A stretch of DNA of 64,000 nucleotides from Candidatus Woesebacteria bacterium (GTDB lineage Bacteria > Patescibacteriota > Microgenomatia > UBA1400 > UBA12108), in the NCBI GenBank assembly GCA_018060845.1, contig JAGOVG010000001.1, forward strand, positions 15,222 through 79,221. The letters run 5' to 3'. Within the stretch, counting starts at the first letter, position 1. Each line of letters begins with the position of its first letter. Both the position numbers and the translations under genes were made by a program. The notes beneath the pieces were generated by a model that had not been told where the DNA came from, made no database searches, and saw only the letters and a program-made list of their open reading frames with translations. Below, in pieces: positions 20,577 through 62,789 of the stretch.

Positions 20577-21196
20577 TCATTTTATTCCGATAGCAATTGC
20601 TCTGAGTAGAGGTTCCTCGTACCAATCATCATCTGCCTTACTAGGCCACCATAAGAGTAGTTCGTCGTCGAATAATATCCCTGAACGCGATGCAGCCGTT
20701 CTTATTTGATCAAATGTTGTATGTGTGTATTTTTGGTTTGGGGGTGTTTTTTCATTAGGTCCAACAATACTTGGAATCGCGTTAAATACACACATAATTA
20801 TTCCAGGTGAACGTAAAACCCGACTACAGCTCGAGAAGAAAGTTCCCTTATTGGGTAAATGCTCGAGAACATCTTTAATATGTATTATGTCAAAGCTACT
20901 TACAGAGAGTTGTGAGTCTTCGAGTGTAGAGTAAATTTTAGGGGATGTAGTCATGCGCATAGATGCTGGCGAAGGATCGAGGACTGTTACATGAAAACCT
21001 TCTTCTGAAAGGCCTTGGCATAGATGCCGTTGCCAGAGCCAATATCCAGTAATGAGGGAGACTCTACTGAGAGTATCTGCCCAGCTCTCTCAACCAATGC
21101 GCTTATTACTGCATGATATGTTCCCACTGTTTGTGGTGCTTTTTCGTAGCTATGTAGATTGCCTTTTTCGCTATATTCAATATAACTTGTCATCAC
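20577..21196 (-). pseudogene. Class I SAM methyltransferase split into two ORFs by a frameshift
   Basis: ORF 20987-21196 carries motif I (LDIGSGNGIYA). ORF 20577-20960, in another frame, carries the C-terminal part (DIIHIKDVLEHLP). Confidence 0.6.
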
Positions 21197-21362: not shown

Positions 21363-21926
21363 TTGTGGTATAAAGAAAGTGATATGAGTAATAAACATAA
21401 GTTAAGCACAAGAGACTACATCTTATATCTCTTAAACAAGATAGAACTTGCCAAAGTTGGAAAGATCAGACTTAACAAACTCGCATTTTTTGTTGAGTTT
21501 GGGTACATATATAAGACTGGTAAACAGTTGTCGGAAACAGAATACGCTGGAATTAACCTAGGTCCTGTTATTAACGACTACCGCAAGATCCTAGCACAGA
21601 TGGAGAAAGATGGTGATGTGAAGATGGAAGGCGATAGGATCGTACCGTTGAAAAATTCGAACTTAATACCAGATGAAGTTAGGGTTGTGATTGATCCGCT
21701 GATTGCACGATTTGACGCTCAGCCAGATCGGCTGCTGGTAAGCATGTCCCATGCCACCGATGCTTACAAAATAACAACTATAGACGAAAAAGTTATGGGC
21801 AAGATAATCGATAAATCACTAGCACCACTTGAGACTGCTTTCTTCGATGAAAAAACTATAGTGGAAGACTTACAAGATCTGCCAAGTATCAATAGAAATA
21901 AGTTGGTTCCGTATGAGTTTGGATGA
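21363..21926 (+). CDS. Panacea-domain (DUF4065/SocA-like) putative antitoxin
   Basis: KIRLNKLAFFVEFGY matches the Panacea domain core (LnKLLYfad). Overlaps the downstream toxin-like gene by 14 nt. Confidence 0.68.
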   Translation: MWYKESDMSNKHKLSTRDYILYLLNKIELAKVGKIRLNKLAFFVEFGYIYKTGKQLSETEYAGINLGPVINDYRKILAQMEKDGDVKMEGDRIVPLKNSNLIPDEVRVVIDPLIARFDAQPDRLLVSMSHATDAYKITTIDEKVMGKIIDKSLAPLETAFFDEKTIVEDLQDLPSINRNKLVPYEFG

Positions 21927-22230
21927 TGCGTATCGAGTCTTAACTGATGACAAGTTTAATAAATGGATCAAGAAAAATTTGCCGACACAGCTGAAGAAAG
22001 TATTAGATAAAAAGATCGCGTATTTAGCATCTAACCCACAACATCCTAGCCTGAATACAAAGAAGTATGGTGTTAGTCAACAAACACTAAAGCAGTCCCA
22101 AGTGGATGAAATCTGGGAGTTTCGTATTAACATGAACTTTAGATGTGTCTATTATGTAGTGCACTCTGAGAAAACAATTATCCTGGCATTTGTGGGCAAC
22201 CACGAAGATGTGAAAGTTCGTTTTGAGTAG
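21913..22230 (+). CDS. RelE/ParE-superfamily-like toxin partnered with the Panacea antitoxin
   Basis: C-terminus EIWEFRINMNFRCVYYVVHSEKTIILAFVGNHEDV follows the RelE/ParE pattern (lwElR...yRiiY.v....i.il.vg.H.d). Confidence 0.6.
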   Translation: MSLDDAYRVLTDDKFNKWIKKNLPTQLKKVLDKKIAYLASNPQHPSLNTKKYGVSQQTLKQSQVDEIWEFRINMNFRCVYYVVHSEKTIILAFVGNHEDVKVRFE

Positions 22231-48692: not shown

Positions 48693-49145
48693 TCATCCTG
48701 AAATATCTACAATCGCTTTAACTCTGTTTTTGTCGACCCTGTGTATCTGGATGGCCTTACGATTGGCAGATATTTCCATTGCGAGGCGATTAAGGATGTA
48801 CATACGGATATTTTTCTCAGTCATATCCTCATATTTCACAGTCGTAACTAGGTAATTATTTATAGTTTGTACATCTTCAACAGTCACCTTGAAATGTTTT
48901 GAGGTTGTATTCTCATAATCTAGAGCATTATGAATGAGTCTAGCGTTGTACCAGTTGCCATACGACTCAAATACGTTATATGTGAATTCTCCGGGGAAGA
49001 GGTCGTTTAGTGATTTAAGAAAGTCAACAGTTTTTCGAAGAACTATAGACTTTGCTAGTTGAAAAACCTGCTCTATGAATCTAAATACCCAAACCATTGC
49101 ATCCACTATTGGATCACTAGGCTCTTTAATCTTCTTTTTCTTCAT
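48693..49145 (-). CDS. Hypothetical protein (last gene of the R-M-linked operon)
   Basis: ORF with 20-nt overlap to the FtsK-gamma gene. No recognised motif. Confidence 0.4.
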   Translation of the reverse strand: MKKKKIKEPSDPIVDAMVWVFRFIEQVFQLAKSIVLRKTVDFLKSLNDLFPGEFTYNVFESYGNWYNARLIHNALDYENTTSKHFKVTVEDVQTINNYLVTTVKYEDMTEKNIRMYILNRLAMEISANRKAIQIHRVDKNRVKAIVDISG

Positions 49146-49479
49146 ATTTTCTTAGAACATCTCTAGGTTTTACTCCCTCTGCCTTACTAACGACCCCTTC
49201 TTTTTCTAGTTTTTCCATAATCATTGCTGCTTTGTTGTATCCATGTGACATACGGCGTTGTAGGTATGACACACTGGCTTTGCCTGCGTCAGATATGACT
49301 CTCCATGCCTCGTTATATTCTTCATCAGCTATCGTAGTAAAGGGATTTGCGTAAGGAATATCAATTTCATCTTCATCTTCTCTTGGCTCGGTATAAAGTA
49401 AATAAGCCACCATCTTCTCGAGGATTAATACACGATTGGTTAATTCATCTACTTGCTTCATTAATTGATCATCGCTCAT
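49126..49479 (-). CDS. Standalone FtsK gamma-domain (winged-helix) protein
   Basis: C-terminal 58 aa EEYNEAWRVISDAGKASVSYLQRRMSHGYNKAAMIMEKLEKEGVVSKAEGVKPRDVL align almost residue-for-residue with the FtsK C-terminus at 345-2480 (ASTSFLQRKMSLGYNKAARIMDQLETAGVVGQQEGAKPRTIL). Confidence 0.75.
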   Translation of the reverse strand: MSDDQLMKQVDELTNRVLILEKMVAYLLYTEPREDEDEIDIPYANPFTTIADEEYNEAWRVISDAGKASVSYLQRRMSHGYNKAAMIMEKLEKEGVVSKAEGVKPRDVLRKYEEKED

Positions 49480-49487
49480 ACGCCTCC

Positions 49488-50163
49488 TTAGAATGGTAAA
49501 TCACTCTTAGTATTCCGATACCTTTCATTAACATGCCGATACTTACAAAACCGGCAATCCTCATTCTCATTGGGGATTGGGCCAGTGATGAGCGTATTGA
49601 TCTCATCCATAAATTTGGTGAAAGATGACTCGTCGATTGGGACTTCGAGCCACTTGGGTGGGAAAGTTAGAGTGGCAACTCCATTATCGAACTTTACCTG
49701 ATCGGGATACATGACAATAAGACCCATTTGGGTGATGCGAATTGGTTCGTCATGCCTGGGATGTTCCATGGCGAATTTGTAGGAATAGAGCTGGGTCTTA
49801 TATTTATCGATTTTGTCCACATGTGGCTGAGATAGCTTAAAGTCTACTAAAAGATATGTACCATCTCGACGTTTAACTAGTAGGTCATATTTGCCTTTGA
49901 GATACAGCTCTGTGCCGGGTATAACGATAGACTCCACAAATCCCCTCCTGCTTCTCAACGATTCCCTCTGGTAGACTTGGGGATAGGGCACGCAACTCTT
50001 TACCAACTAGCGTTCCTTGTAAGCGAGTATTGATAGCTGAGAAGATCCCTGGCATGGGCATTTGAGGCCTCATAACCTGATCGTGGACTTTCATCCAATA
50101 ACATCGTTTACACTCTTCATATAAATAGGCAAAATCTGATGGAGAGAGTTTGCATTGATGCAT
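49488..50163 (-). pseudogene. Cas4-like/RecB-family PD-(D/E)XK nuclease with Cys cluster, interrupted by a 1-nt frameshift
   Basis: N-terminal ORF has SPSDFAYLYEECKRCYW (Cas4 YCPRrfY-type). C-terminal ORF, in another frame, has GKYDLLVKRRDGTYLLVDFKLS (D...D/ExK), TQLYSYKF (QxxxY) and a C-terminal CRFC. The two frames would join by deleting one C in the CCCC tract at 49942-49945. Confidence 0.65.
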
Positions 50164-50165
50164 AG

Positions 50166-50759
50166 TTATGAGTTCTTCTCTCGTATCTCTTCCTCTAAGG
50201 ACTTCAATGTAGATTCAAATAGTGTCATAAATTCGTCAGTTTTCCCATTAGTTGCTCCGTACAATTCCATCCAAAGCCCTTCTGCATCTTTATTGCCGAT
50301 TCTATTAGTCGGATCGTCCCATTTAGATTCGTAAAAGATTTCAAAATCTATTGCATATCTTTTTATCAGGTCTAGGATTGATTGAATGTATTTAGTTTTA
50401 TCTTTTCCCCATAAGGCGTCGGCTCTGAGCTTTAATATTCTGAGATGACTATTAGTTTCTATTACGTCATTAAGTCTTGCTGCATGTTCACTGTAATGTG
50501 CATCACGTTGTTTTTCCACATCCTTCATAATATCTTGTTGATATCTATAAAATCTTCCTCTCGCATGTATGAGCTTTTCTTCTATCTCATACACACATTC
50601 CATAATTTCAAGTGATAATTTGTATTCATCTTGACCTTTTACTTGCTTCTTCCATGTTGACAACCCTTGATACGCTATCCATACTCCAAAACCTACTAGG
50701 AGAGAGTTAACTAATTCTAGATTTAACATGTTTAATAGACATGGTAGATTAATTAACAT
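50166..50759 (-). CDS. Hypothetical protein with N-terminal TM helix, directly downstream of hsdMS
   Basis: Lies 4 nt after the hsdMS stop. N-terminal hydrophobic helix (LVNSLLVGFGVWIAYQGL), then a charged helical domain with no recognised motif. Confidence 0.45.
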   Translation of the reverse strand: MLINLPCLLNMLNLELVNSLLVGFGVWIAYQGLSTWKKQVKGQDEYKLSLEIMECVYEIEEKLIHARGRFYRYQQDIMKDVEKQRDAHYSEHAARLNDVIETNSHLRILKLRADALWGKDKTKYIQSILDLIKRYAIDFEIFYESKWDDPTNRIGNKDAEGLWMELYGATNGKTDEFMTLFESTLKSLEEEIREKNS

Positions 50760-50763
50760 ATCA

Positions 50764-53163
50764 TCATTCTGACCATAAATTAGATAAAAGTAAATCTACT
50801 TTTTGCTCATATATTTCAACTAGTTGTCGCACGTTATCGACTAACATATATTCTGAATTAATATTTTTAATTATTTCGATTTGAGTTTCAGCCGAGGGAA
50901 AAGGTACTTCAATATCTTCTATTTGAGATTTACTTATTGAATCAAATACTGCACCTCCGTTTCCTACTATTTCCTTTTCAATCATTTTCAAATATGTAAA
51001 TAAAAACATCTGATTTATCTTTATTGGTTTTATTGCTGCCAGACCTCTCCCTATACAGATTTGTTCTGTAGTAATGTTTACGGGTCCAACAGGTGCTCGA
51101 ACTGACATCAGAATATCACCCTTATCTGCAACCTTAGATGTTTTTGTAGTCCACTTCGTAGGCTTCCGTAGATAGACATCTCCAAATTCTGTTTTGCCTT
51201 GATAAAATGCCATCCCTTGCTCAGAATCGTTATAATACTTTCCTTCTGGTGATTGGCCTGCAATAACATTAGCAACTTCGTGTAATTTGACTTTATTCCA
51301 AAGCTTATTAATTTCTATACTAGGTTTCCAATTATTTTTTATTAGCAGAGCCCCATTTATAATTTTCTGATAATTATCTATCTTTGCAACGATTTGATCC
51401 TGAATTTCAATTGATGGTAAGGGTATATTAAACTGTCCTAAATCACTAGTTTTCATTGTTACATTTGCTGCTCCACTCATCAATTTCGCCATTTCCTTCT
51501 TAACACTATTTAATACGTAATACAGGTATTTAGTATTCAATTGGCTCGCATCAATGGGCACTAGCAGAGCTAATAAATTAGCAAGAGCAAACTTTCCTGT
51601 TGTGTAATGTATCCTCTTTATATCGGCTTTCCCGTGTCCCGTTGCGGAAATTAGAGGAACAGCAACTCCTTCGCCCTCAAAATCAAAATGATCTGATGAT
51701 TTTATTATTTCTGCAGTTAAATATAATTTGTATGGACCATTTTCAGTTTTAGTGCTTGATGACTTTCCTTTTACTATTGTGCAAATTTCCGCTAAAGGTA
51801 CATACTTAATATCTGTACTTACAACATCTCTTTTTTTATATTTTAATAATGAAAGATTATAGTTATTATTTATTATTTCTTGTTTATTTATAATTGAAGA
51901 TAAGTGATTAGGTTTGATTTTCGTACTACTTTGGTAAGCTTTAATTATTTTGAGAGCAACTTCTAAATCGTTTTCTTTTATAATTTTTTGAGTTGCGCCT
52001 AGACTTACTCCAGTGCTATGGATATCTATAAATATAAGGTTGTCATTCAGATTATTAAGAGCCTTATCAAAAACTAATATAGAAGTTTTTACTCCTGAAT
52101 ATGGTTGAAATACTCCACTTGGAAGACTAATGACAGCATACAATCCATCATTAATAAGATTTTTACGTAACTCAGTATGGGATTTTCCAGTTTGGAAAAT
52201 AATACCTTCTGGAACAATAATTGCAGCTCTCCCGTTTGGCTTTAAATGATTCATTATGTAGTCAACAAACAATACCTCTGAACGACTAGATTGAATACTG
52301 AATTTGCTGTGTGGAGTAATTCCTCCTTTTGGAGACATGAAAGGAGGATTGGCTAAGATAACATCAAACTTATCATTCCAACGTTCATCTTGTGACAGTG
52401 AGTCGTACTGAAATATTTTTGGGTTCTTAAATTGATGAAGATACATATTTACCTGAGCTATACGGACCATCCCTGGATCAATATCATATCCTTCAAAGTT
52501 ACCCATCATTTTCCTGCGCTCGTCAGGTGTTAGCGCTTTTTCTTTCTTATCTGGATCATTTTTCCCATCATGCTTCTCAAGTATGTGAAGGAAGGATTTG
52601 ATTAAGAATCCTCCTGTCCCACAAGCTGGGTCTAGCACCTTATCATCCTTAGTTGGATTTACAACATCTACCATGAAATCAATAATGTGTCGTGGAGTTC
52701 TAAACTGTCCGGCGTCCCCTTGACTAGACATGATTGAAAGTAGATATTCGTAGGCATTGCCAAGCTCTTCTGGATGAGAGTAATCAAAGAATCCTATTTC
52801 TTTAAGAAATAGTCCTAGTGTTTCTGGTGAACGATATGGTAAAAATGCAGATTTGAATATGCCTCTAAATAACTCTGGGAGCTGTTTAGATTCGGAGAAC
52901 TTAACTAATGCCTCGGCATATAAATTCATTCTCTCCTGATTACCGAGCCGTGAGTCCATAATTCTAGTCCATGCGTATTTCTCTAGGTCACCGACAAAGA
53001 AGGCTGGCTCTCCACCTACTTTCACCGAAGCTTGATCTATATCGTCCATGAACTTGTAGATTAGAGCAGTAGTGATTTGATCAATCTGAGATGTCGGATT
53101 GGGAACCACCCCTACAAGCACTTGTCGTGCCGCGTCTATATGTCTTTTAGTGTCTGTATTCAT
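50764..53163 (-). CDS. hsdM: Type I R-M fused methyltransferase-specificity subunit (HsdM-HsdS fusion)
   Basis: HsdM_N helices, motif I DPACGTGGFL, motif IV ILANPPF. Two HsdS-type TRDs follow, each ending in a conserved spacer helix (LPLPSIEIQDQIVAKID; VPFPSAETQIEIIKNINSEY). Confidence 0.85.
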   Translation of the reverse strand: MNTDTKRHIDAARQVLVGVVPNPTSQIDQITTALIYKFMDDIDQASVKVGGEPAFFVGDLEKYAWTRIMDSRLGNQERMNLYAEALVKFSESKQLPELFRGIFKSAFLPYRSPETLGLFLKEIGFFDYSHPEELGNAYEYLLSIMSSQGDAGQFRTPRHIIDFMVDVVNPTKDDKVLDPACGTGGFLIKSFLHILEKHDGKNDPDKKEKALTPDERRKMMGNFEGYDIDPGMVRIAQVNMYLHQFKNPKIFQYDSLSQDERWNDKFDVILANPPFMSPKGGITPHSKFSIQSSRSEVLFVDYIMNHLKPNGRAAIIVPEGIIFQTGKSHTELRKNLINDGLYAVISLPSGVFQPYSGVKTSILVFDKALNNLNDNLIFIDIHSTGVSLGATQKIIKENDLEVALKIIKAYQSSTKIKPNHLSSIINKQEIINNNYNLSLLKYKKRDVVSTDIKYVPLAEICTIVKGKSSSTKTENGPYKLYLTAEIIKSSDHFDFEGEGVAVPLISATGHGKADIKRIHYTTGKFALANLLALLVPIDASQLNTKYLYYVLNSVKKEMAKLMSGAANVTMKTSDLGQFNIPLPSIEIQDQIVAKIDNYQKIINGALLIKNNWKPSIEINKLWNKVKLHEVANVIAGQSPEGKYYNDSEQGMAFYQGKTEFGDVYLRKPTKWTTKTSKVADKGDILMSVRAPVGPVNITTEQICIGRGLAAIKPIKINQMFLFTYLKMIEKEIVGNGGAVFDSISKSQIEDIEVPFPSAETQIEIIKNINSEYMLVDNVRQLVEIYEQKVDLLLSNLWSE

Positions 53164-53165
53164 AT

Positions 53166-55742
53166 TTATAGATTAGTTAAGTTGTACGCGTAATCGTGAA
53201 TGTATTGTGGTACAACAGTTGAGTATCCATTTAACCTCTGGTACTCATCAAAAGTAAAGCTCGATTCGGTGTTAAATCGCCCAACTTGGCGACTTGCGAC
53301 GATTTCTCTCACCTTTTCATCAGATGCATAGGCTTTGAAGTACATTTTTACGGCGTCGTAGTGTTCTTGGTCAACTGGGTTAACCTCCATAAACTTGCCC
53401 CATTCAGACTCTAATAGGTCATCTTTCATCTCAAAAGCATCTTTGTCTCCAAATGCTACCTGAAGGAATTCTTTGACAGTAATGCGTCTATCGACACTAA
53501 ATATCTTTCTTATTTTGTCTAGGTTGAGGAAATGTTTTGGCTTATCAAAGATATTCTTCTTAGCAAAATCTTCTGCTGCCTCAATGTCACCATTCTCCCA
53601 CATATTTTTGAGAGTTTTGTTTCCAAGCACATCTTCGTCAATCGCACGCTTGAATCCTTCTCTATCAATCTTCATTCCCTCCACCCCGATTGCAGTCTCA
53701 GCGACTGAGACAACTTCATCTCTAGTAGCAAGATCGATGGGACCGTTAAATACTTTGTGACCATTTTCATCTACATAGTCGCTACTAGATGATACTTCAA
53801 CACCAATCTCAGTGACGGGAACTTTTTTGATGTTTGGTAATTTTATCTTTTCGTCATACTCAAATTCTTTTTCAAAATATTCACAAGTAGCGAAGAAATC
53901 AAAGAACTTAAATTGTTTTTTGGGGATCGAGATTGTTTCGTTATTGGTGTAGTCGTGATAGTCGAAGGAGTATTTCCTAGTTCCACGCCCCTTAATCTGT
54001 ACAAAATCGGCAGGACTAAAGACTGGGCGCATCAGAGCAATGTTAAGCAGATCCTGACAATCGTAGCCAGTCGTCATCATTCCGACTGTTACGGCTACGC
54101 GAGTTTTACTTGTATCGTATCCTTCTGGACTTTTAATCTGTCCACCAAGCTTATTATTTGCAAAGTTGATTGTCATTTGTTGTGCACTTTGAACTTGAGA
54201 AGTAACTTGTACTGCAAAGTCTGACTCACTATAAAGCTTTGGCCATTTTTCCATTGCTAGTTTATTGAGAATATTTGTGACGTGAGCCGCATGGCGCTGC
54301 GATACGCAGAATACGATAGATTTACCAAATAGCTGAATGTCGAACTTACTAGCAATAGGATCGAAGAACCCGTTATCAAGAAATGCTTTGGACATGGCAA
54401 TATTTGTTTCTTCATTAAAGAACTTACGCTCGTAGTGACGCTCATTAAAGACCTCGTCAATACTTTCGCCGTCTTCTCCGGTTGTGTGGACTGAATACCC
54501 TTCACCAGATAAAAGTTGAGTTGTGATCTCGGTGCGAGCATCAACTACCGTAGGTTGGATTAAATAGTCTTCTTTCGAACCCTGAACGAGATCATATGAG
54601 AAGGTTGGGTTGCCAGACTCACAGCCGAAGGTTTTATATGTATCCAGAAGAAGTCTTCGTTCGTATTCTCTTTGACTATCGTTGCTTTCACCGCTATCCA
54701 GCCCTTTTAGATAATTCTTGGGTGTAGCAGTAAGTCCAAGCTTATATCCGACAAAATATTCAAATACAGCCCGACTATTTCCTCCGATTGAGCGGTGAGC
54801 TTCGTCAGATATCACAAGTTCAAAGTCGGTAGGAGAGAAATCCTTTCGATACCTATTGCCAGAAAGAAAAGTTTGAATTGTTGAAACAACGACACTTGCA
54901 TTTTGCCAGCTATCTTTTGTATTTTTGTATATTGCACAAGTAAAATCTTTGCCTAAATACTGGATAAAGGCTTTGTTTGCTTGGTCTTCAAGTTCTAGGC
55001 GATCTACTAGGAATAGTACTCTCCTTGCATTCCCAGATTTGAGGAAGAGCTTAATAACTGCGGCAGAAATTAGGGTTTTTCCTGTTCCTGTTGCCATCTC
55101 GAAAAGAAATCTTTGATTACCTTCTAAAGCAGATTGTTGAAGTGCCTTTAGAGCTTGAACTTGATATGGACGAAGTTGTTTAAGATTGTGTTTCTTGAGA
55201 TATGACGAACGAGTATTCTCATCTATAAATTCAGGAACTCTCGAATAATCTGGCATTTGAGTTGAGATAACATAGTTCGCATCAACGCTAGTGTTAGCTA
55301 GCTCTTCTGGGTCTGGAGTGTATTTCTGGTACTGACTGATTGAATCTTGAGTTGGGAATCGAGAGATTGTATCGGGGTTTCCATGTTTCGTATCCCAAAA
55401 ATAGTGAATATTCCCATTTGAGAGAATAATAAATCGAGCTCCGCAATTACGTGCGTAGTTACGAGCTTGCTCTTTGGCAGATAATGGGTCGACTGACTCT
55501 TTCTTTGCCTCTACTACGAGAAGTGGTCGTCCATCCTTATCTAACAAAAGGAAATCAATAAAACCATGCACTTCATGTTCAAAGTCATCTCCTAGCTCGG
55601 AGTACTTAATTCCTGGTTCGAGCTGAATGTTAGCTTTTCCGAGACTATTATCTACAAATCTCCAACCTGATTCCTCGAGAAGTTTATTTATTTTTATCCG
55701 AGCTTGAGCCTCTTTTTGCACCATGAGAGTATTGTACCCCAT
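53166..55742 (-). CDS. hsdR: Type I restriction endonuclease R subunit
   Basis: N-terminal PD-(D/E)XK (GFIDFLLLDKDGRPLLVVEAKKE), SF2 motor motifs (EMATGTGKT; VISDEAHRS), C-terminal helical domain. Starts 3 nt upstream of the hsdMS start. Confidence 0.9.
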   Translation of the reverse strand: MGYNTLMVQKEAQARIKINKLLEESGWRFVDNSLGKANIQLEPGIKYSELGDDFEHEVHGFIDFLLLDKDGRPLLVVEAKKESVDPLSAKEQARNYARNCGARFIILSNGNIHYFWDTKHGNPDTISRFPTQDSISQYQKYTPDPEELANTSVDANYVISTQMPDYSRVPEFIDENTRSSYLKKHNLKQLRPYQVQALKALQQSALEGNQRFLFEMATGTGKTLISAAVIKLFLKSGNARRVLFLVDRLELEDQANKAFIQYLGKDFTCAIYKNTKDSWQNASVVVSTIQTFLSGNRYRKDFSPTDFELVISDEAHRSIGGNSRAVFEYFVGYKLGLTATPKNYLKGLDSGESNDSQREYERRLLLDTYKTFGCESGNPTFSYDLVQGSKEDYLIQPTVVDARTEITTQLLSGEGYSVHTTGEDGESIDEVFNERHYERKFFNEETNIAMSKAFLDNGFFDPIASKFDIQLFGKSIVFCVSQRHAAHVTNILNKLAMEKWPKLYSESDFAVQVTSQVQSAQQMTINFANNKLGGQIKSPEGYDTSKTRVAVTVGMMTTGYDCQDLLNIALMRPVFSPADFVQIKGRGTRKYSFDYHDYTNNETISIPKKQFKFFDFFATCEYFEKEFEYDEKIKLPNIKKVPVTEIGVEVSSSSDYVDENGHKVFNGPIDLATRDEVVSVAETAIGVEGMKIDREGFKRAIDEDVLGNKTLKNMWENGDIEAAEDFAKKNIFDKPKHFLNLDKIRKIFSVDRRITVKEFLQVAFGDKDAFEMKDDLLESEWGKFMEVNPVDQEHYDAVKMYFKAYASDEKVREIVASRQVGRFNTESSFTFDEYQRLNGYSTVVPQYIHDYAYNLTNL

Positions 55743-56301: not shown

Positions 56302-57159
56302 TTATTGGGGTACGCACTCATAGAGATCTTGACACATTGTTAGTAATGCGTGTGCGTTTGCAGCTACTGGGTTATTTGATGCTTTCATTTCGTATTTCAA
56401 AGAATTTGCTACCATTTGATCATAAGAAGCAAATTGATAATCTTTAAGTGGAGTGGGATCAAATATTCCATCTTCCCTGAAAGTAGCTGCTCGATACAGT
56501 TGTCTTACTTGCCATAATATTGCGGCTTGTCGCATACCAAGTATTGCAGTGTGAGCAACAGATGGTTCAAGTTGGACATCTCTACACCCCTTACTCTGCA
56601 TTACTGTATATGATCGCTCTAGTGCACGAAAAAGCGAGTCTCTATATTCAGTAGCATTTTTATCACTAATCTTTCTGTGAGTTGCTTCTTTTAGTGTTTG
56701 GATTGTTGGTGTCACTCGTACAGCGTTAGGGTCTATTCTAAATAATTCGGTTTCTAATACTGACAGTGGGGTGTTTACAATTGCCTGAGATGGCCCACCT
56801 GAAGAGCAGATATTTGTTGAACCAACTAGGTGAAGTAAACGTATTTTCGATAGTTCGCCTGGAGTTCTTTTAATTGTATTCTTTAGAATAGTATTCAGGT
56901 GCGCATCGTTTAGTGCATCTTTAAAATTACCACCTTTGCCATAAAATTGATAAACTCTACTCGAGAAAGTATTTACAGTTTCTGCAAGAGCTAAAGTGAG
57001 TTTCTCGCTTAATTCAGGTCTATTTATCGCTGCTGCTGCTTGTTCAGCTGCTATCACTAACATGGATGAAGTTACTCGATACATGAAGTGTTTCACTGTT
57101 TCAAAAGACTCAGGGCCAAGTCTAATGTTGCTGTATACCGCTTCGTGATCTATAGACAT
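56302..57159 (-). CDS. Hypothetical 285-aa protein between the RecD-like helicase and the R-M locus
   Basis: ORF with no recognised motif. Looks AT-richer than the helicase genes. Confidence 0.45.
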   Translation of the reverse strand: MSIDHEAVYSNIRLGPESFETVKHFMYRVTSSMLVIAAEQAAAAINRPELSEKLTLALAETVNTFSSRVYQFYGKGGNFKDALNDAHLNTILKNTIKRTPGELSKIRLLHLVGSTNICSSGGPSQAIVNTPLSVLETELFRIDPNAVRVTPTIQTLKEATHRKISDKNATEYRDSLFRALERSYTVMQSKGCRDVQLEPSVAHTAILGMRQAAILWQVRQLYRAATFREDGIFDPTPLKDYQFASYDQMVANSLKYEMKASNNPVAANAHALLTMCQDLYECVPQ

Positions 57160-57195
57160 TCTTGGTATTATAGGATAAATGGCTGAAATTTCAAG

Positions 57196-58503
57196 CTAGA
57201 GGATGGTACTGGTTTCGCGCATTAAAGTGAGCCAAGAGGTCACGGTCGGATCCATGATGACGTGGCGGTGGGTGAGCTCGCGGCGGAGATAGACGCCAGC
57301 GAGACTGGTTGCGCGTGATAGTGCGACATAAGTCTGGCCATGGGCAAAGGACTGAGGTAGGTCGATGATGACTCGGTCAAAAGTCTTCCCCTGTGCTTTG
57401 TGGATGGTAACTGCCCAAGCGAGCATAAGCGGGAGCTGGGTGTAGGTGCCGACCACGTCGCTACTGATCCGACGTGATTTTTCGTTGTAGTCAAAACTAA
57501 ACATCTCCCAGGTAGTTGGGGCGACGTCAACGAGCTTTTTGTTTTTGAGCCTGACTGAGACTATAGGCAGGCTATTCTCCCAGTCGATTTCCTCGACCCT
57601 GCCAACTGTCCCATTAACATACCTCTTCTCCCTATCGTTTGCCGTCAGCATAACCTGTGCCCCGATCTTGAGGGTTAACTCGCGAGGAGCTGGTTCGGTA
57701 CGATTATCAAACTTCCCGGTTGCGATCGCAAAAAAATCGTGGCTCTTGCCACTTAGGCTATTTAGCTGATAGTCGTTGTAGTCACCGGCGGTTTTGTTGG
57801 TACCGGTTAGGTTGATCACATACTCCTCGGGAGGTGGCGCATAGTCGGGAGAGACGCGGGTATTTAGAAGATCTAGGTGGGAGCTATTAAGTTTCCCCTC
57901 GCGTAGCGCATTTAGGACCTCGATAAACTCGGCATCACTCTGTCTATAGATATGGTCGAGTTCGATAAAGGTAAGTGCTAGGCGAGACATCACGTCGGCA
58001 CTAAAGAAAAAAGGTGAAGAGTAGCGAGCACGAAAAACCTCTGCCTCCATATATGGTACGACGGGTGGGAGCTGATAGAGGTCGCCAAAGAAAATCATCC
58101 GCTTGCCACCGAACGGGCGAGAGCTCATGCAGACCCTACGCAAGAAAGCATCGATACAGTCTAGGAGATCGGCTCGGACCATACTGATCTCGTCGATGAT
58201 GACTAGATTTAGGTTTTTATAGAGTTCGGATTTTTTGGTTTTGCCACCTAAGCTCCAAGCTTTGTCGATTGTGATGTTGGGTTTAAAACCAAAGAAGCTA
58301 TGAATGGTGGCACCACCCACATTGACTGCCGCCACTCCGGTGGGAGCCAAGACTACATGGGACTGCTCGGTGCTCTTGTGAAAGTAAGTAAGGAGCGTGG
58401 ACTTGCCTGTCCCTGCCCGACCAGTGATAAAGAGGTGGTCGCTACCGTGCTCTAAGAGCTCTAGGGTTTGTTTAAATATTGGAGAGAGCTCAATGTTAGA
58501 CAT
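57196..58503 (-). CDS. RecD/PIF1-like SF1B DNA helicase (short form)
   Basis: Motif I FITGRAGTGKST, Ia VLAPTGVAA, II VIIDEISMV, and a C-terminal SH3-like/2B region (AVTIHKAQGKTFDRVII). Confidence 0.8.
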   Translation of the reverse strand: MSNIELSPIFKQTLELLEHGSDHLFITGRAGTGKSTLLTYFHKSTEQSHVVLAPTGVAAVNVGGATIHSFFGFKPNITIDKAWSLGGKTKKSELYKNLNLVIIDEISMVRADLLDCIDAFLRRVCMSSRPFGGKRMIFFGDLYQLPPVVPYMEAEVFRARYSSPFFFSADVMSRLALTFIELDHIYRQSDAEFIEVLNALREGKLNSSHLDLLNTRVSPDYAPPPEEYVINLTGTNKTAGDYNDYQLNSLSGKSHDFFAIATGKFDNRTEPAPRELTLKIGAQVMLTANDREKRYVNGTVGRVEEIDWENSLPIVSVRLKNKKLVDVAPTTWEMFSFDYNEKSRRISSDVVGTYTQLPLMLAWAVTIHKAQGKTFDRVIIDLPQSFAHGQTYVALSRATSLAGVYLRRELTHRHVIMDPTVTSWLTLMRETSTIL

Positions 58504-58524
58504 ACCTCATGTTACACCACGATT

Positions 58525-61500
58525 TTAAGCGAGCAAGTCAATTTCGAATGATTTGGTGCCCTGGAGGTTCTTGCTATATTTGTCGGTTATTGGGAGGTCT
58601 AAGGCCTGGATCTTGCCCCAAACTACCCCTATCAGTTTTTTGATCTCTTGCTCTTCTGCCTCATTAAACTGAATACTGAGCGGTGCAATGATATCACCGC
58701 TCCTTAGATCTGTGGGCTCGACAAACTCTAGCCGAGCCTCAGTTACTTTGTAGCTCCTCCAAGTGTAACTACCCTCTATAAGGAATTTGTAGAAATATAA
58801 TTGATGCTTGTATTTGTAGGCTTTCATTGAGGATTCCCATTTGGGGAGAGGCTGACCAGTTTTGAAGTCTACAATACGCAGAGTTTTGTTAACTTGATCA
58901 ATCTCTAGTCTATCGATCTTGCCGGTCAATCTAGCATCACCAATACAGACTCCCTCACTATAAAAGTTTACCTCTGTCTGAGCACTCTGGCTAAACATAT
59001 CTCCACGGCTAGTTAGATACTTTTGAAGTACTACACTACCCCGACTAAGTAAGTGATCCTTATCATGCTCGCTTAAGAAGCGATGATTTAGCTCTACACT
59101 ATAGTGAGTCAGTACCTCGGCCATCTCTGGTTTTTTACTGCTTAAAATCTGTTGCTGATACCACTCTAAGGTATTGTGGATCGCTAAGCCATATTCACTA
59201 TCCGGAGTTGGGGCGCTCGGGAAGCGTAGCAGTGTCCGCATCAAAAACTCTTCGGGACCGCTGTGCTCTAGATCCATAAAGGTATTGAGGTGGGTGGGAC
59301 TCATGACGTAGCTGTCCAGGTGCTCACTCAGGAGGTCACGAAAATCGACCGGGAGCGTAACTCGGCCGGCGCTCCAGAGAGTGGCTACATCACGAGCTAA
59401 GTCATCTGAGCTATGCTCTGTAGTCACAATATTCTGTGAAGATAACGGTAAGTGTGGTGAGACACCGTCAACCTCACCCAAGTATTTGAGAGGAGTGGTT
59501 GGTTTGCCGTTATCGTGACTCGAATGTGAGGAAATATAGAGGCCGTAGCGGGAGCGGGTGATGGCAACAAAGAAGAGTCGCAGCCGCTCGTCATCACCAC
59601 TATGGGTATAGCGGATATGGCTCAGATTGGGTGGGAGGGAGAGCTTGGACCCGCCGCCGCGACTGGCACTACCCCAGACATCGTCGTGCGCCTGCAAAAT
59701 AAAGACGTGATCAAACTCGAGCCCCTTGGCTTTGTAGGCTGTCATGAGCTGGACACTACTTAACCCCTGTGCGACAGGATGTGAGTTAATCAGTCCCTCG
59801 CCAGCCGATTCGTACATCGCAAAAAAGTCGAGAAAGTCGGTGAGCGTCAAGCTATGGTCACTACTATTTTGATATTCCCTCAGGTGTGAGCGAATAATAC
59901 TTAGATGTGTGATCGCTTCGTAGTATTTGACTGCATCAACCGAGCGCATTTCTATGGCAAAGTAGTGAGACTTAAGAGGAGTCTCGGTAATTAGCTGGTC
60001 AAGGATAGATTCGAGCGGTGTAGTTGCTACTGCACCACTGAGAGTGAGATAAAAATTAACTGCCTCTGATAATGCATTATTCTCGAGCGCGATCTCGGCC
60101 CAGGCTCTCTTTTCTTCTTTTTTGGCAAACTGCCAGTTGGTACGCCATACCTCGACCACCGGGATACCCCAGTATGGTTGAGACAAAACCTGAGGAAAGT
60201 ATTCGTTTATCTTTGAGCGATTATTAGTCCAAAGCGCGTCGAGTAGTAGTGCTGATTGGTGAAGGATTTTGACTATTTCGGTATCCAGGATGTTCTCACG
60301 CTTTTCGTAGGTTAAGGGGACTCCCAGTTGCTTGAGGAACGGCACCATATTCTCTAGTAGTTTGTGTTTGGGAGCAATGACTGCAACCTCGCTGGGTTTG
60401 GTGCCACGCTTAATTAACTCGTCGATCTGACGAGCGACCCATGAATACTCTGCTGCCTCGGATACAAAATCATTGCGCATAATATTGGAGCTGGGAGGGA
60501 GTGCGTCGCTACTCTCAACTAGTAATTTGTCGATACCCTCTAGCTTGGTATGCAATCGACCACTAATCTGACTGGCGATGTTCTGGGCAACGTGTAGTAC
60601 GTCGCGGTGTGAGCGATAGTTGTTGACTAGGTTGATAACCTGCACTTCACGAAATGATTCTAGAAAATCTTGGATGTTGCCGATGTTCGCACCCTGAAAA
60701 GCAAAAATGGCCTGGTCATCATCTCCTACTGCCATCACGTTGGGTCGACCCTCGTGGACAGGGTGGTCTGCTATCCGCTTGACCAGCTCGAACTGTGCGG
60801 GGTTGGTATCCTGGAACTCGTCGAGGAGGATATATTGATAGCGTTCCTGCAGGTTAAACCTTAGTTCGTCATTATTTTTAAGACCCTCGATTGCGCGGAT
60901 GATCATGTCATTAAAATCGTAAGATGCCTCTACTCTGAGAGCTTGCTCATACGACTCGTAGATGCTTGAGAGATCGACCATTTTTTCGCTGGTCGCGCGC
61001 TTGGTTAATGTAAATTTATCTTTATCATCTTTGTGTAACCAAGCGTTCTTCCATTTGGTTAGGGGAGTGGAAGTGCTACTCTCCTCATATTCATCAAATG
61101 CAAGTTTTAACCCACCTGCTGCTTGCTCGACCAAACTACCACTAAGAGCGGACAAGCGCTCGAGCAATGTCGCATACTGGCTTGGCCACTGATCTTTTTT
61201 GCGCGAGATACCACCCACCTGGTTAATCACCTCATCGATGACTATCTGAGCGGAGTCGATCTGATGGAGGTTGTTAATACCTAGTTCATAGAGTGCTTGT
61301 GGAGTTATTAAGTTTTTTTTGAGATCGCTAATAGTACTCACCACATCTTTGACAAAGTAGCGGGCAGAGAGGAGTGAGCTATCAAATGGTAGCTTACCGA
61401 GGATCGCTTCGACTATCCGGATTTGAGATAACTCATCGATCGCTCGCTCGAGCCTAACATCATCCGTTCGATCTAGCCCTATCTGCTGAAAGTATTCACT

Positions 61501-61818
61501 GTGGCTCTTTATGATGTCGCTACCAAAACTGTGGTAGGTACTAATAGTCACCTCGTAGGCGGCCTCACCAATAAACTCCCTGAGGCGACGACGCATATTG
61601 GCGGCACCGGACTCGGTAAAAGTGAGACAGAGGATGTTGCTGGGTGCAATATCCGTTAGCTTTAGAATATTGGCGACACGAGCGGAGAGGAGCTGGGTCT
61701 TGCCAGTACCAGGACCAGCAAGTACGAGGAGCGGGCCATCGATCGTATCGACTGCCAGTTTTTGCTCTTTGTTTAGATTGTTGTAGGCGGTCGCAAAGGA
61801 TGATTTGTAGTCTGTCAT
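58525..61818 (-). CDS. RecB/AddA-like UvrD-family helicase fused to a C-terminal PD-(D/E)XK nuclease
   Basis: Helicase motifs VLAGPGTGKTQLL, LLDEFQDTNP, YKAKGLEFDHVFIL, VAITRSR. C-terminal nuclease GKIDRLEID...LRIVDFKTGQ plus QLYFYKF. Confidence 0.85.
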   Translation of the reverse strand: MTDYKSSFATAYNNLNKEQKLAVDTIDGPLLVLAGPGTGKTQLLSARVANILKLTDIAPSNILCLTFTESGAANMRRRLREFIGEAAYEVTISTYHSFGSDIIKSHSEYFQQIGLDRTDDVRLERAIDELSQIRIVEAILGKLPFDSSLLSARYFVKDVVSTISDLKKNLITPQALYELGINNLHQIDSAQIVIDEVINQVGGISRKKDQWPSQYATLLERLSALSGSLVEQAAGGLKLAFDEYEESSTSTPLTKWKNAWLHKDDKDKFTLTKRATSEKMVDLSSIYESYEQALRVEASYDFNDMIIRAIEGLKNNDELRFNLQERYQYILLDEFQDTNPAQFELVKRIADHPVHEGRPNVMAVGDDDQAIFAFQGANIGNIQDFLESFREVQVINLVNNYRSHRDVLHVAQNIASQISGRLHTKLEGIDKLLVESSDALPPSSNIMRNDFVSEAAEYSWVARQIDELIKRGTKPSEVAVIAPKHKLLENMVPFLKQLGVPLTYEKRENILDTEIVKILHQSALLLDALWTNNRSKINEYFPQVLSQPYWGIPVVEVWRTNWQFAKKEEKRAWAEIALENNALSEAVNFYLTLSGAVATTPLESILDQLITETPLKSHYFAIEMRSVDAVKYYEAITHLSIIRSHLREYQNSSDHSLTLTDFLDFFAMYESAGEGLINSHPVAQGLSSVQLMTAYKAKGLEFDHVFILQAHDDVWGSASRGGGSKLSLPPNLSHIRYTHSGDDERLRLFFVAITRSRYGLYISSHSSHDNGKPTTPLKYLGEVDGVSPHLPLSSQNIVTTEHSSDDLARDVATLWSAGRVTLPVDFRDLLSEHLDSYVMSPTHLNTFMDLEHSGPEEFLMRTLLRFPSAPTPDSEYGLAIHNTLEWYQQQILSSKKPEMAEVLTHYSVELNHRFLSEHDKDHLLSRGSVVLQKYLTSRGDMFSQSAQTEVNFYSEGVCIGDARLTGKIDRLEIDQVNKTLRIVDFKTGQPLPKWESSMKAYKYKHQLYFYKFLIEGSYTWRSYKVTEARLEFVEPTDLRSGDIIAPLSIQFNEAEEQEIKKLIGVVWGKIQALDLPITDKYSKNLQGTKSFEIDLLA

Positions 61819-62789
61819 GAGATCCTCGGCTGCTCATCGGCATCTGATTTTGTTAAAGCTTTGGTGCCCTCTAGTTTTTGACCCAGCTGGGTGATGCCGC
61901 TACTTACTTCACTATATTTGTTGTAGGCATTGGTTAGATGAGTGCCGAGCGTACCGTATGATTCGCTAACTTTTGTGTAGTCTTTTTGGATACTACGAAG
62001 GAGAGTAAAGACTTCTTTGGCCCGTGACTCGATGCGGCGACCCTCGAAAGATAGGAGGATAGTCTGCAGTGCGGCATAAAGGGTGCTCGGGGAGACGGGG
62101 TAGACCCGGAGCCCTCGCGCATAGTCCATGACACCGTCAGCCTGGACGATCTCGTAATATACGCTCTCTGAGGGGATATACATAAGCGCAAAGTCCAGTG
62201 TCCCCTCGCTGGGATTAATGTATTTGGTGCTAATGGCCTTAACGTGGAGTCGAACATCCCGGACAAAGGAGCGCCTATGCGCAATGACCAAATCTGGGTT
62301 TTGTTCTGAGTAGATTTTTTGAAAATTCTCGAGAGGGAACTTACTATCGATCGGGAGGATGCCAGCATCGGTCTTTACTATCGCGTCGACTTTTTCCCCT
62401 GATTTAAACGCATATTGGAGCACGTAACTACTCTTAGGGAAAATCTGACCTATTAGGTCGGCGAGGACCGCCTCACCAATATTGCCGCGTAGCTTAGGAG
62501 AGCGCAGATAATCCTGGAGATCCTTCATGGAGCGGCCGATCTCGCTAAAGGCCCCTGTCTCTTTTTTTAGTTCACCAATCACATAACTCGCTCGCTCTAG
62601 ACGCGAGCTGATATCACGCGTCGTATCAAGGAGAGAACTGGCCACGCTAGATTTTGTTGAGTCAACGCTAGTTCTTATAGTATCGAGCTCCCGTCTAAGG
62701 GAGCTGATAAAGAGATAGCCTGCGATAAAGATCACAACGGTTATGGCGATTAAGAACAGTTCGAGAGACATAGATTTATTGTATACCAA
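61815..62789 (-). CDS. rmuC: DNA recombination protein RmuC
   Basis: N-terminal TM, coiled-coil, conserved RmuC C-terminal nuclease-like domain (LPIDSKFPLE...DFALMYIPSESVYYE). 4-nt overlap with the downstream recB-like gene. Confidence 0.82.
   Translation of the reverse strand: MVYNKSMSLELFLIAITVVIFIAGYLFISSLRRELDTIRTSVDSTKSSVASSLLDTTRDISSRLERASYVIGELKKETGAFSEIGRSMKDLQDYLRSPKLRGNIGEAVLADLIGQIFPKSSYVLQYAFKSGEKVDAIVKTDAGILPIDSKFPLENFQKIYSEQNPDLVIAHRRSFVRDVRLHVKAISTKYINPSEGTLDFALMYIPSESVYYEIVQADGVMDYARGLRVYPVSPSTLYAALQTILLSFEGRRIESRAKEVFTLLRSIQKDYTKVSESYGTLGTHLTNAYNKYSEVSSGITQLGQKLEGTKALTKSDADEQPRIS

Follow-up and report, generated by a model that had tools for sequence, protein, structure and literature searches.

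The minus strand of a 64-kb stretch of DNA from a Candidatus Woesebacteria bacterium carries two open reading frames (ORFs), here called ORF-A and ORF-B, that lie in adjacent frames and together encode the parts of a Cas4-like PD-(D/E)XK nuclease (Table 1). We refer to the whole stretch, at its full length of 64,000 nt, as "the window." The two ORFs overlap by 122 nt, which is the largest open-frame overlap between same-strand neighbors in the window; the runner-up is an overlap of 121 nt (55694-56104/56032-56286) in which the 136-aa ORF looks spurious. ORF-A begins with 74 residues of the native N-terminus, among them the invariant C18-x2-C21, and continues out of frame for 18 residues up to a stop codon. 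ORF-B carries D93, D107-x-K109, Q124..Y128, C203-x2-C206, and an acidic LPF tail; in the public record it appears, truncated to 149 aa, under the name "PD-(D/E)XK nuclease family protein."

An initial annotation of this DNA had proposed that the two ORFs jointly hold the nuclease motifs, and that dropping one C from the CCCC run at 49942-49945 would restore a single protein of ~225 aa. The two ORFs are indeed found as described, with coordinates exactly as given, and both halves belong to one PD-(D/E)XK Cas4-like family rather than to different families. Removing one base from the run (GGGG on the coding strand) yields a 675-nt ORF encoding 224 aa plus a stop codon, with the frameshift junction at about residue 74, i.e., between codons 74 and 75. 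One extra base in this G4/C4 run is the only lesion in the gene.

Origin of the extra base

The 90% cluster that contains ORF-B also includes a 201-aa protein that is continuous through the junction. Gene order on the contig that encodes it (L009; ENA ERZ3602260; 4,442 bp) matches that of the window, and we refer to the source of this contig as the sister strain. The blastn alignment of L009 and the window (97.4% identity over 4,396 bp) contains 113 mismatches and a single gap, where L009 reads GGG and the window GGGG. The product of the intact L009 gene (L009:2928-3599) and the restored sequence are 100% identical; beyond the indel, this gene differs from that in the window by just one synonymous substitution. 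Since the sister-strain gene is intact and otherwise near-identical, the ancestral state is intact and the lesion is very recent. Orthologs in related genomes, the comparison proposed in the initial annotation, are likewise intact single ORFs; they are unsplit at the junction, which goes against the fixed pseudogene that orthologs split at the same place would have meant. Three options had been raised initially for the break: recent inactivation, sequencing error, and a phase switch. The sister strain favors the first, and we consider it likely that a genuine, very recent +1 insertion (GGG to GGGG on the coding strand) frameshifts a conserved, stand-alone nuclease gene.

If the break were instead an artefact, the gene would be intact in the organism, with GGG, and an indel error in a metagenome-assembled contig would account for the additional G. 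Several observations are compatible with such an error: the source is a Candidatus Woesebacteria metagenome-assembled genome (MAG; GCA_020049755.1, contig JAHZTO010000034.1), the lesion amounts to one base in a short homopolymer, no further decay is seen in the gene (its protein being identical to that of the sister strain), and two public versions of the contig differ in length by 4 bp. An independent assembler points the other way. The Logan assembly of the raw run SRR11088367 includes a contig (L090; 11,219 bp) that is 100% identical to window positions 49858-53163 (3,306 bp), including GGGG and the exact 92-aa ORF-A. Another public contig, of 226,723 bp, also encodes the 149-aa ORF-B. Moreover, no further indel occurs in the 4.4 kb compared with the sister strain, longer A/T runs included. 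No large gene of the window, up to a length of 1,097 aa, is broken, and the coding fraction is about 0.97, which does not fit an error-prone assembly. Two points weigh against a genuine insertion. First, the Logan contig probably derives from the same reads as the MAG, which leaves a small chance of a systematic read error. Second, another gene in the same 64 kb, encoding an S-adenosylmethionine (SAM)-dependent methyltransferase (20577-21193), is also split by a single base; there could be several real pseudogenes, or a low rate of indel errors. Taking both sides together, we regard an assembly or sequencing error as unlikely.

The third option was a phase-variable (contingency) switch, in which the length of the G run would toggle the nuclease on and off in the population. 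Phase variation is common in defence contexts, and this gene is in such a context; moreover, GGG and GGGG alleles are both present among closely related strains, as seen in consensus contigs (GGG in L009, GGGG in L090). Contingency tracts are, however, usually about 7 bases or longer, and the run here has 4 bases (3 in the sister strain), short of a tract of at least 7. Among 50 distinct ortholog loci, counted after removal of duplicate rows, the run has 2, 3, and 4 G in 8, 33, and 9 loci, respectively; its length varies with synonymous E-G codons, and no homopolymer tract is maintained. In other lineages, the gene was inactivated in unrelated ways: by a nonsense codon, by a deletion within an A run, and by deletions (see below). 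A switch at this run is accordingly very improbable.

The sequence at the break also bears on how the two ORFs might be translated. The conserved Q-E-G codons spell AGGAGG, which could serve ORF-B as a fortuitous Shine-Dalgarno (SD) site, judging from its sequence and position. The same motif invites comparison with programmed or leaky +1 ribosomal frameshifting, in which a slip from GGG to GGA, aided by AGGAGG as in prfB, would provide wild-type protein at a low level. A slip after GGG would yield ...QEGFVES..., the same as the wild type, and the SD-like sequence overlaps the slip site; an SD-like sequence at a slip site resembles the prfB stimulator. Yet frameshifting is not needed in any ortholog, nor in the nearest strain. 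The zero-frame A-site codon is AUU, i.e., there is no stop or rare codon for pausing, and the zero frame stays open for 18 codons further. We judge frameshifting of this kind extremely improbable.

The restored nuclease and the effect of the break

A search of 5.8 billion proteins found 771 homologs (best E = 1e-131), such that the family match is not due to chance. Nearly all of them are intact, with lengths of 219-236 aa, and come from Patescibacteria (Woesebacteria, Berkelbacteria, and others). Identity is 88% for the best match and about 60% for most. The restored protein passes Pfam PF12705 (PDDEXK_1) with 39.4 bits against a cutoff of 22, and PF12705 is precomputed for all homologs listed. 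The peptide that spans the junction, EKQEGFVES, is conserved among orthologs. In an alignment of 44 sequences, the residues of the catalytic D...(D/E)xK motif (D93, D107, and K109) and of the QxxxY motif of Cas4 (Q124 and Y128) are invariant, as are C18, C21, C203, and C206. All 119 full-length homologs have this 2+2 arrangement of cysteines (CxxC...CxxC), with a further cysteine within 9 residues in just 6 of the 119.

An AlphaFold2 model built from the 44-sequence alignment is confident (predicted local distance difference test, pLDDT, 87.9) and has a restriction-endonuclease-like alpha/beta fold. Its best Foldseek matches are the AdnA nuclease domain, Cas4 SSO0001, MGME1, EXO5, ACE1, and AddAB; the matches to AdnA, Cas4, MGME1, EXO5, AddAB, and lambda exonuclease each have a probability of about 1.0. 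The nuclease domains of AddAB/AdnAB, together with EXO5/MGME1, are the closest structural relatives (9np6, E = 5e-7; 7lwa; 5zyv). In these enzymes, an Fe-S "staple" joins an N-terminal cysteine to the C-terminal cysteines. Unlike AddAB and AdnAB, the protein described here is free-standing, has 224 aa, and lacks a helicase domain. We conclude that the intact protein is a single-domain nuclease of ~224 aa in the Cas4/AddB/EXO5 fold class.

The relationship to Cas4 is one of family rather than identity. The fold class is shared with the CRISPR protein Cas4 SSO0001 (PDB 4ic1; Foldseek E = 2e-6, TM about 0.5), as are the D...DxK and QxxxY motifs, and the C-terminal CxxC aligns with the CxxC of Cas4. 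The third C-terminal cysteine of Cas4 is absent, replaced by a second N-terminal cysteine. With the TIGR00372 (Cas4) model, the restored protein scores 37.1 bits, below the trusted cutoff of 65, and PADLOC Cas4 models match it weakly (E about 1e-10); the alignments to Cas4 models span residues from about 17 to 210 and hence cross the junction at ~74. A sequence search of the PDB with the family profile found nothing significant (the best real match was 4ic1, E = 0.1), which means that the relationship to Cas4 rests on profile and fold evidence only. Unlike the setting of CRISPR Cas4, there are no cas1 or cas2 genes in the 64 kb, no cas families among the annotated neighbors, and no CRISPR-like repeats in the window by Tandem Repeats Finder (TRF) and a direct-repeat search, such that a CRISPR array, which the initial annotation had reported as absent, is rejected. 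The initial description as a Cas4-like nuclease therefore holds at the level of the PD-(D/E)XK Cas4-like family, but does not extend to Cas4 proper: given the score below the TIGR00372 cutoff, the 2+2 rather than 1+3 cysteines, and the lack of CRISPR-like repeats in the window, the protein is not a bona fide Cas4.

The C-terminus is a further feature of the family: in 66 of the 119 full-length homologs, the last three residues are IPF or LPF, and these are usually preceded by acidic residues (EDIPF, SDLPF, DDIPF). This tail resembles the DDDIPF tip at the C-terminus of single-stranded DNA-binding protein (SSB), which recruits repair proteins. By this analogy, the acidic (I/L)PF sequence is a possible partner-binding tail.

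Beyond the ortholog group, a search of the window for a second copy of the nuclease found only a weak match to the nuclease domain of an AddA-like 1,097-aa protein, which is a separate gene (58525-61818) whose product is 33% identical to the nuclease over 86 aa. The contig L085, which has a decayed family remnant, also carries a distant paralog (~23% identity; L085:12830-13468) with the same CxxC...DxK...CxxC layout, 2.7 kb downstream of that remnant. A search with the family profile retrieved 1,029 clusters at the 50% identity level (E <= 1e-3), and the superfamily is therefore far broader than the ortholog group within the candidate phyla radiation (CPR).

Through the frameshift, the N-terminal CxxC, within the 74 native residues, loses its connection to the catalytic core and to the C-terminal CxxC. 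The four invariant cysteines probably hold an Fe-S or metal cluster; such a cluster would tie the N- and C-termini together. Because the frameshift splits these cysteines between an N-terminal and a C-terminal part, a folded enzyme is most likely no longer made. When intact, the enzyme most likely resects or degrades DNA ends.

Activity might survive the break in a two-piece enzyme. ORF-A and ORF-B would both be translated and would reassemble via the shared metal cluster, or ORF-B would act alone. The sequence AGGAGG-N6-GTG stands exactly at the break, and ORF-B contains all the catalytic residues. An archaeal solo-Cas4, from M. mazei, is a [4Fe-4S] double-stranded DNA nuclease, and cysteine mutants that lack the cluster stay active (PMC12501428). 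Since those mutants kept their activity, the ORF-B fragment, if translated, might by analogy keep some too, and this counts against complete loss of function. On the other hand, ORF-B lacks the N-terminal CxxC and would be short of about 75 N-terminal residues, among which the model places three helices and a strand, and the AGGAGG is merely the conserved Q-E-G codons. Furthermore, no ortholog among the hundreds listed is naturally split at this position, short entries being isolated fragments or broken alleles. A functional two-piece enzyme is thus very unlikely.

Recurrent loss and the association with restriction systems

The window is not the only place where the gene has been broken. The contigs of relatives are designated here by L followed by a number. 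In L092 (Logan ERR8482633), a relative of the clade with 88% identity, an otherwise intact ORF (L092:3344-4012) has an in-frame GAG-to-TAG change at codon 77 (..QEGFV*SIVVPG..); this nonsense codon lies three codons after the break in the window and is independent of it. More decayed copies occur in species-representative genomes. In a Berkelbacteria locus (L084:10001-10662), a separate 1-nt lesion shifts the reading frame; it falls in an A run, at about residue 98. At four further loci (L085:10001-10081, L086:879-944, L087:5570-5632, and L088:10001-10093), only the first 21-31 codons are present, followed by stop-rich sequence. The nuclease gene is, therefore, lost repeatedly, which argues against an essential housekeeping role. 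The independent nonsense, frameshift, and remnant alleles support the view that the intact enzyme is most likely dispensable.

Each of the close relatives examined (76-88% identity) has a restriction-type system directly upstream of the ortholog and on the same strand; this holds for all seven distinct close-relative contexts, with different systems among them. The spacing between restriction system and ortholog ranges from an 8-nt overlap to a 19-nt gap. Directly upstream are a Type ISP-like system in L003; Dam, SNF2, AAA_15, and Dnd-associated genes in L002; Mod/Res-like, AAA_15, and Ymh genes in L004-L007; a Type I system unrelated to that of the window in L010; and Type IIG systems in L008 and L092 (in L092, an enzyme with Eco57I/MmeI/TaqI_C). 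Downstream, genes are syntenic with the window in L003, L008, L009, L010, and L092; L002 and L004 have no downstream gene in common with the window. Overall, the nuclease and the downstream synteny are conserved, the upstream systems are replaced, and there is no conserved partner gene. A conserved two-gene module was considered and rejected: the proteins encoded at position -1 (197, 179, 244, 316, 280, 144, and 281 aa) are mutually unrelated.

A broader survey used Pfam to describe the neighborhoods of 79 species-representative CPR loci. In the pooled set, ResIII, HSDR_N, N6_Mtase, Methylase_S, Eco57I, EcoRI_methylase, Type_ISP_C, GmrSD_N, Mrr_cat, HNH, and Fic dominate the four upstream genes, and the two downstream genes are housekeeping genes. 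When loci were scored individually, a methyltransferase or helicase-nuclease homolog occurred within five genes upstream at 18 of 73 loci vs downstream at 2 of 73 (binomial p = 4e-4). About three quarters of the 73 loci have no methyltransferase, helicase, or ATPase seed match within the five upstream genes; the seed set for this count was limited to these three classes, such that GmrSD, Fic, Mrr, and HNH genes are not counted per locus.

These data indicate that, in relatives, the nuclease gene marks the fixed downstream edge of a fast-changing restriction-system cassette. This polar pattern fits either a hotspot for defence cassettes that is anchored on the nuclease gene or a shared accessory nuclease, and the evidence does not tell a functional partnership from insertions that simply gather beside an unrelated gene. 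The divergence of restriction-modification (R-M) and nuclease genes does not separate co-transfer from a hotspot either: between the window and L010, the nuclease is 78% identical and the R-M genes are unrelated; between L025 and L037, the nuclease is 60% and Res 77% identical; and between L004 and L025, all are about 55-60% identical.

We tentatively suggest, as a possibility that is less likely than not, that the protein is a shared, exchangeable helper nuclease for many restriction systems in Patescibacteria, with its gene as the fixed 3' anchor of a defence-cassette hotspot. As a helper, the enzyme would process or destroy DNA ends produced by Type I, ISP, IIG, and III enzymes, much as RecBCD acts after restriction in E. 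coli or ACE1 acts beside a prokaryotic Argonaute (pAgo). The acidic (I/L)PF tail would recruit the nuclease to SSB partners or to SSB-coated DNA, and recurrent knock-outs would reflect the cost of the nuclease once the upstream cassette changes. ACE1 is an Argonaute-associated, Cas4-family enzyme that assists a non-CRISPR defence nuclease (PMC12094033). Like the protein described here, it is a Cas4-family nuclease encoded beside non-CRISPR defence genes, and it is a structural neighbor (9iab/9iac, E about 2e-5). The two differ in that the partner of ACE1 is pAgo rather than restriction enzymes, and in that cooperation has been demonstrated for ACE1, whereas here it is suggested by gene order only.

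Association of Cas4-like proteins with restriction systems has precedent. Hudaiberdiev et al. (2017; PMC5704561) described solo-Cas4 as common in CPR genomes and as adjoining R-M genes in DPANN archaea, and linked Cas4-like PF12705 proteins to Type III R-M. The initial annotation had called a solo Cas4 inside an R-M operon notable in itself; the adjacency to R-M genes is real, but such adjacency had already been reported, for DPANN archaea (PMC5704561). The solo-Cas4 proteins of CPR and DPANN and the protein described here are alike in being stand-alone PD-(D/E)XK nucleases of ~220 aa with four conserved cysteines, encoded outside CRISPR-cas loci and beside R-M genes in uncultured bacteria with small genomes. 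They are unlike in three respects: (i) the family described here scores 37 vs 65 bits on the Cas4 model and has CxxC...CxxC, not C...CxxCx5C; (ii) most of its members end in the acidic (I/L)PF tail; and (iii) it stands in a polar position, at the 3' edge of restriction systems that are many and unrelated, which is more specific than the association described in that paper. The 2+2 cysteines, the SSB-like (I/L)PF tail, the fixed 3' position, and the recurrent inactivation are absent from PMC5704561.

By itself, the frameshift in the window is of little weight, being one recent loss-of-function allele. The wider pattern is that of a highly conserved Cas4-like nuclease (~60% identity across CPR) that stands behind rapidly swapped restriction cassettes and is repeatedly knocked out. 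CRISPR-Cas is largely missing from CPR bacteria, which probably depend on restriction systems. Whether the gene is a hotspot anchor or encodes a shared accessory nuclease, it would help to find and interpret defence loci in unculturable organisms, and the intact sister-strain allele and the broken alleles form a natural pair for probing the role of the enzyme.

Gene block and other features of the window

Within the window, the nuclease gene is the fourth of a co-directional, tightly packed, six-gene block (Table 1), with successive gaps of 2, 4, 2, and 8 nt and then a 20-nt overlap. No minus-strand terminator-like sites were found inside the block, and a scan for sigma-70 promoters across 47.5-57.5 kb returned 27 sites, compared with 29 expected. 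The HsdR subunit matches the NCBIfam model restrict_EcoAI with E = 5e-61 and 207 bits, under the model's 550-bit cutoff, such that "EcoAI-like" denotes resemblance only. The 197-aa protein encoded between the hsd genes and the nuclease has no match in Pfam, NCBIfam, or PADLOC, and the FtsK-gamma gene is syntenic in L009, L010, and L092. In being co-directional with, and translationally close to, the hsd genes, the nuclease gene resembles a component of the Type I R-M system. The variety of partners in relatives (Type I, ISP, IIG, III-like Mod/Res, and SNF2+AAA_15+Dnd-associated) nevertheless speaks against a dedicated Type I component.

Table 1. Positions of the nuclease gene, its parts, and other features of the window.
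Feature	Coordinates	Strand	Basis or remark
Disrupted gene for a 224-aa Cas4-like PD-(D/E)XK nuclease, whole locus	49488..50163	-	One-base deletion restores ORF; PDDEXK_1; homologs
ORF-A	49885..50163	-	ATG start at 50163; 92 aa
ORF-B, open frame	50006..49488	-	172 aa counted from TTG
ORF-B, public annotation	49488..49937	-	149 aa from GTG 49937; P0008 = MBP9702116.1
Run with extra base, CCCC (+) / GGGG (-)	49942..49945	.	GGG in sister strain; same GGGG in Logan contig L090
AGGAGG, candidate fortuitous Shine-Dalgarno for ORF-B	49944..49949	-	Read from sequence; 6 nt before GTG 49937
Acidic C-terminus of nuclease	49488-49505	-	Family alignment
HsdR, Type I restriction subunit, EcoAI-like; first of block	53166..55742	-	Pfam ResIII, HSDR_N_2; PADLOC REase_I
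Fused HsdM-HsdS, 799 aa; N6-adenine methyltransferase and two specificity domains	50764..53163	-	Pfam N6_Mtase 1e-58, Methylase_S 2e-27; PADLOC MTase_I 5e-100
197-aa protein; ends 2 nt before nuclease start codon	50166..50759	-	Present in L009 too
117-aa FtsK-gamma (winged-helix) protein; begins 8 nt past nuclease stop	49126..49479	-	Pfam FtsK_gamma 5e-23
150-aa protein; last of block	48693..49145	-	Kept downstream in L008, L009, L092
Methyltransferase N-terminal ORF, 68 aa	20987-21193	-	Methyltransf_23 profile positions 7-45
Methyltransferase C-terminal ORF, 127 aa	20577-20960	-	Methyltransf_11 positions 50-95

Divergence between the window and the sister strain across this block is mosaic (window 50764-53163 vs L009:3-2327). 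Two stretches, the opening ~700 nt of the HsdM-S gene and the 3' portion of the 150-aa gene, diverge by about 10%, and the sequence between them by ~0.5%, a distribution that suggests that recombination has recently taken place across the locus.

A run of DNA-end-processing genes (56302-62771) lies immediately upstream of the R-M block, on the same strand: a 318-aa ORF, the 1,097-aa UvrD-helicase + PDDEXK_1 (AddA-like) protein, a PIF1/RecD-like helicase of 435 aa, and a 285-aa protein. This run and the Cas4-like gene may have been parted by insertion of the R-M genes.

The second split gene of the window, for the SAM-dependent methyltransferase, consists of two minus-strand ORFs. The split looks like a one-base deletion near AAGGCCTTT, and it is seen on a second contig as well. 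Other overlapping pairs were considered as possible frameshifts and rejected, since LepA/MurJ, PMT/LytR, SocA/ParE, and a GNAT pair each consist of separate genes; the methyltransferase pair is the only one that looks split. The SocA/ParE pair (21384-22230, plus strand) comprises a SocA/Panacea-domain, antitoxin-like ORF (180 aa) that overlaps a weak ParE-like toxin ORF (105 aa), and is a probable toxin-antitoxin pair.

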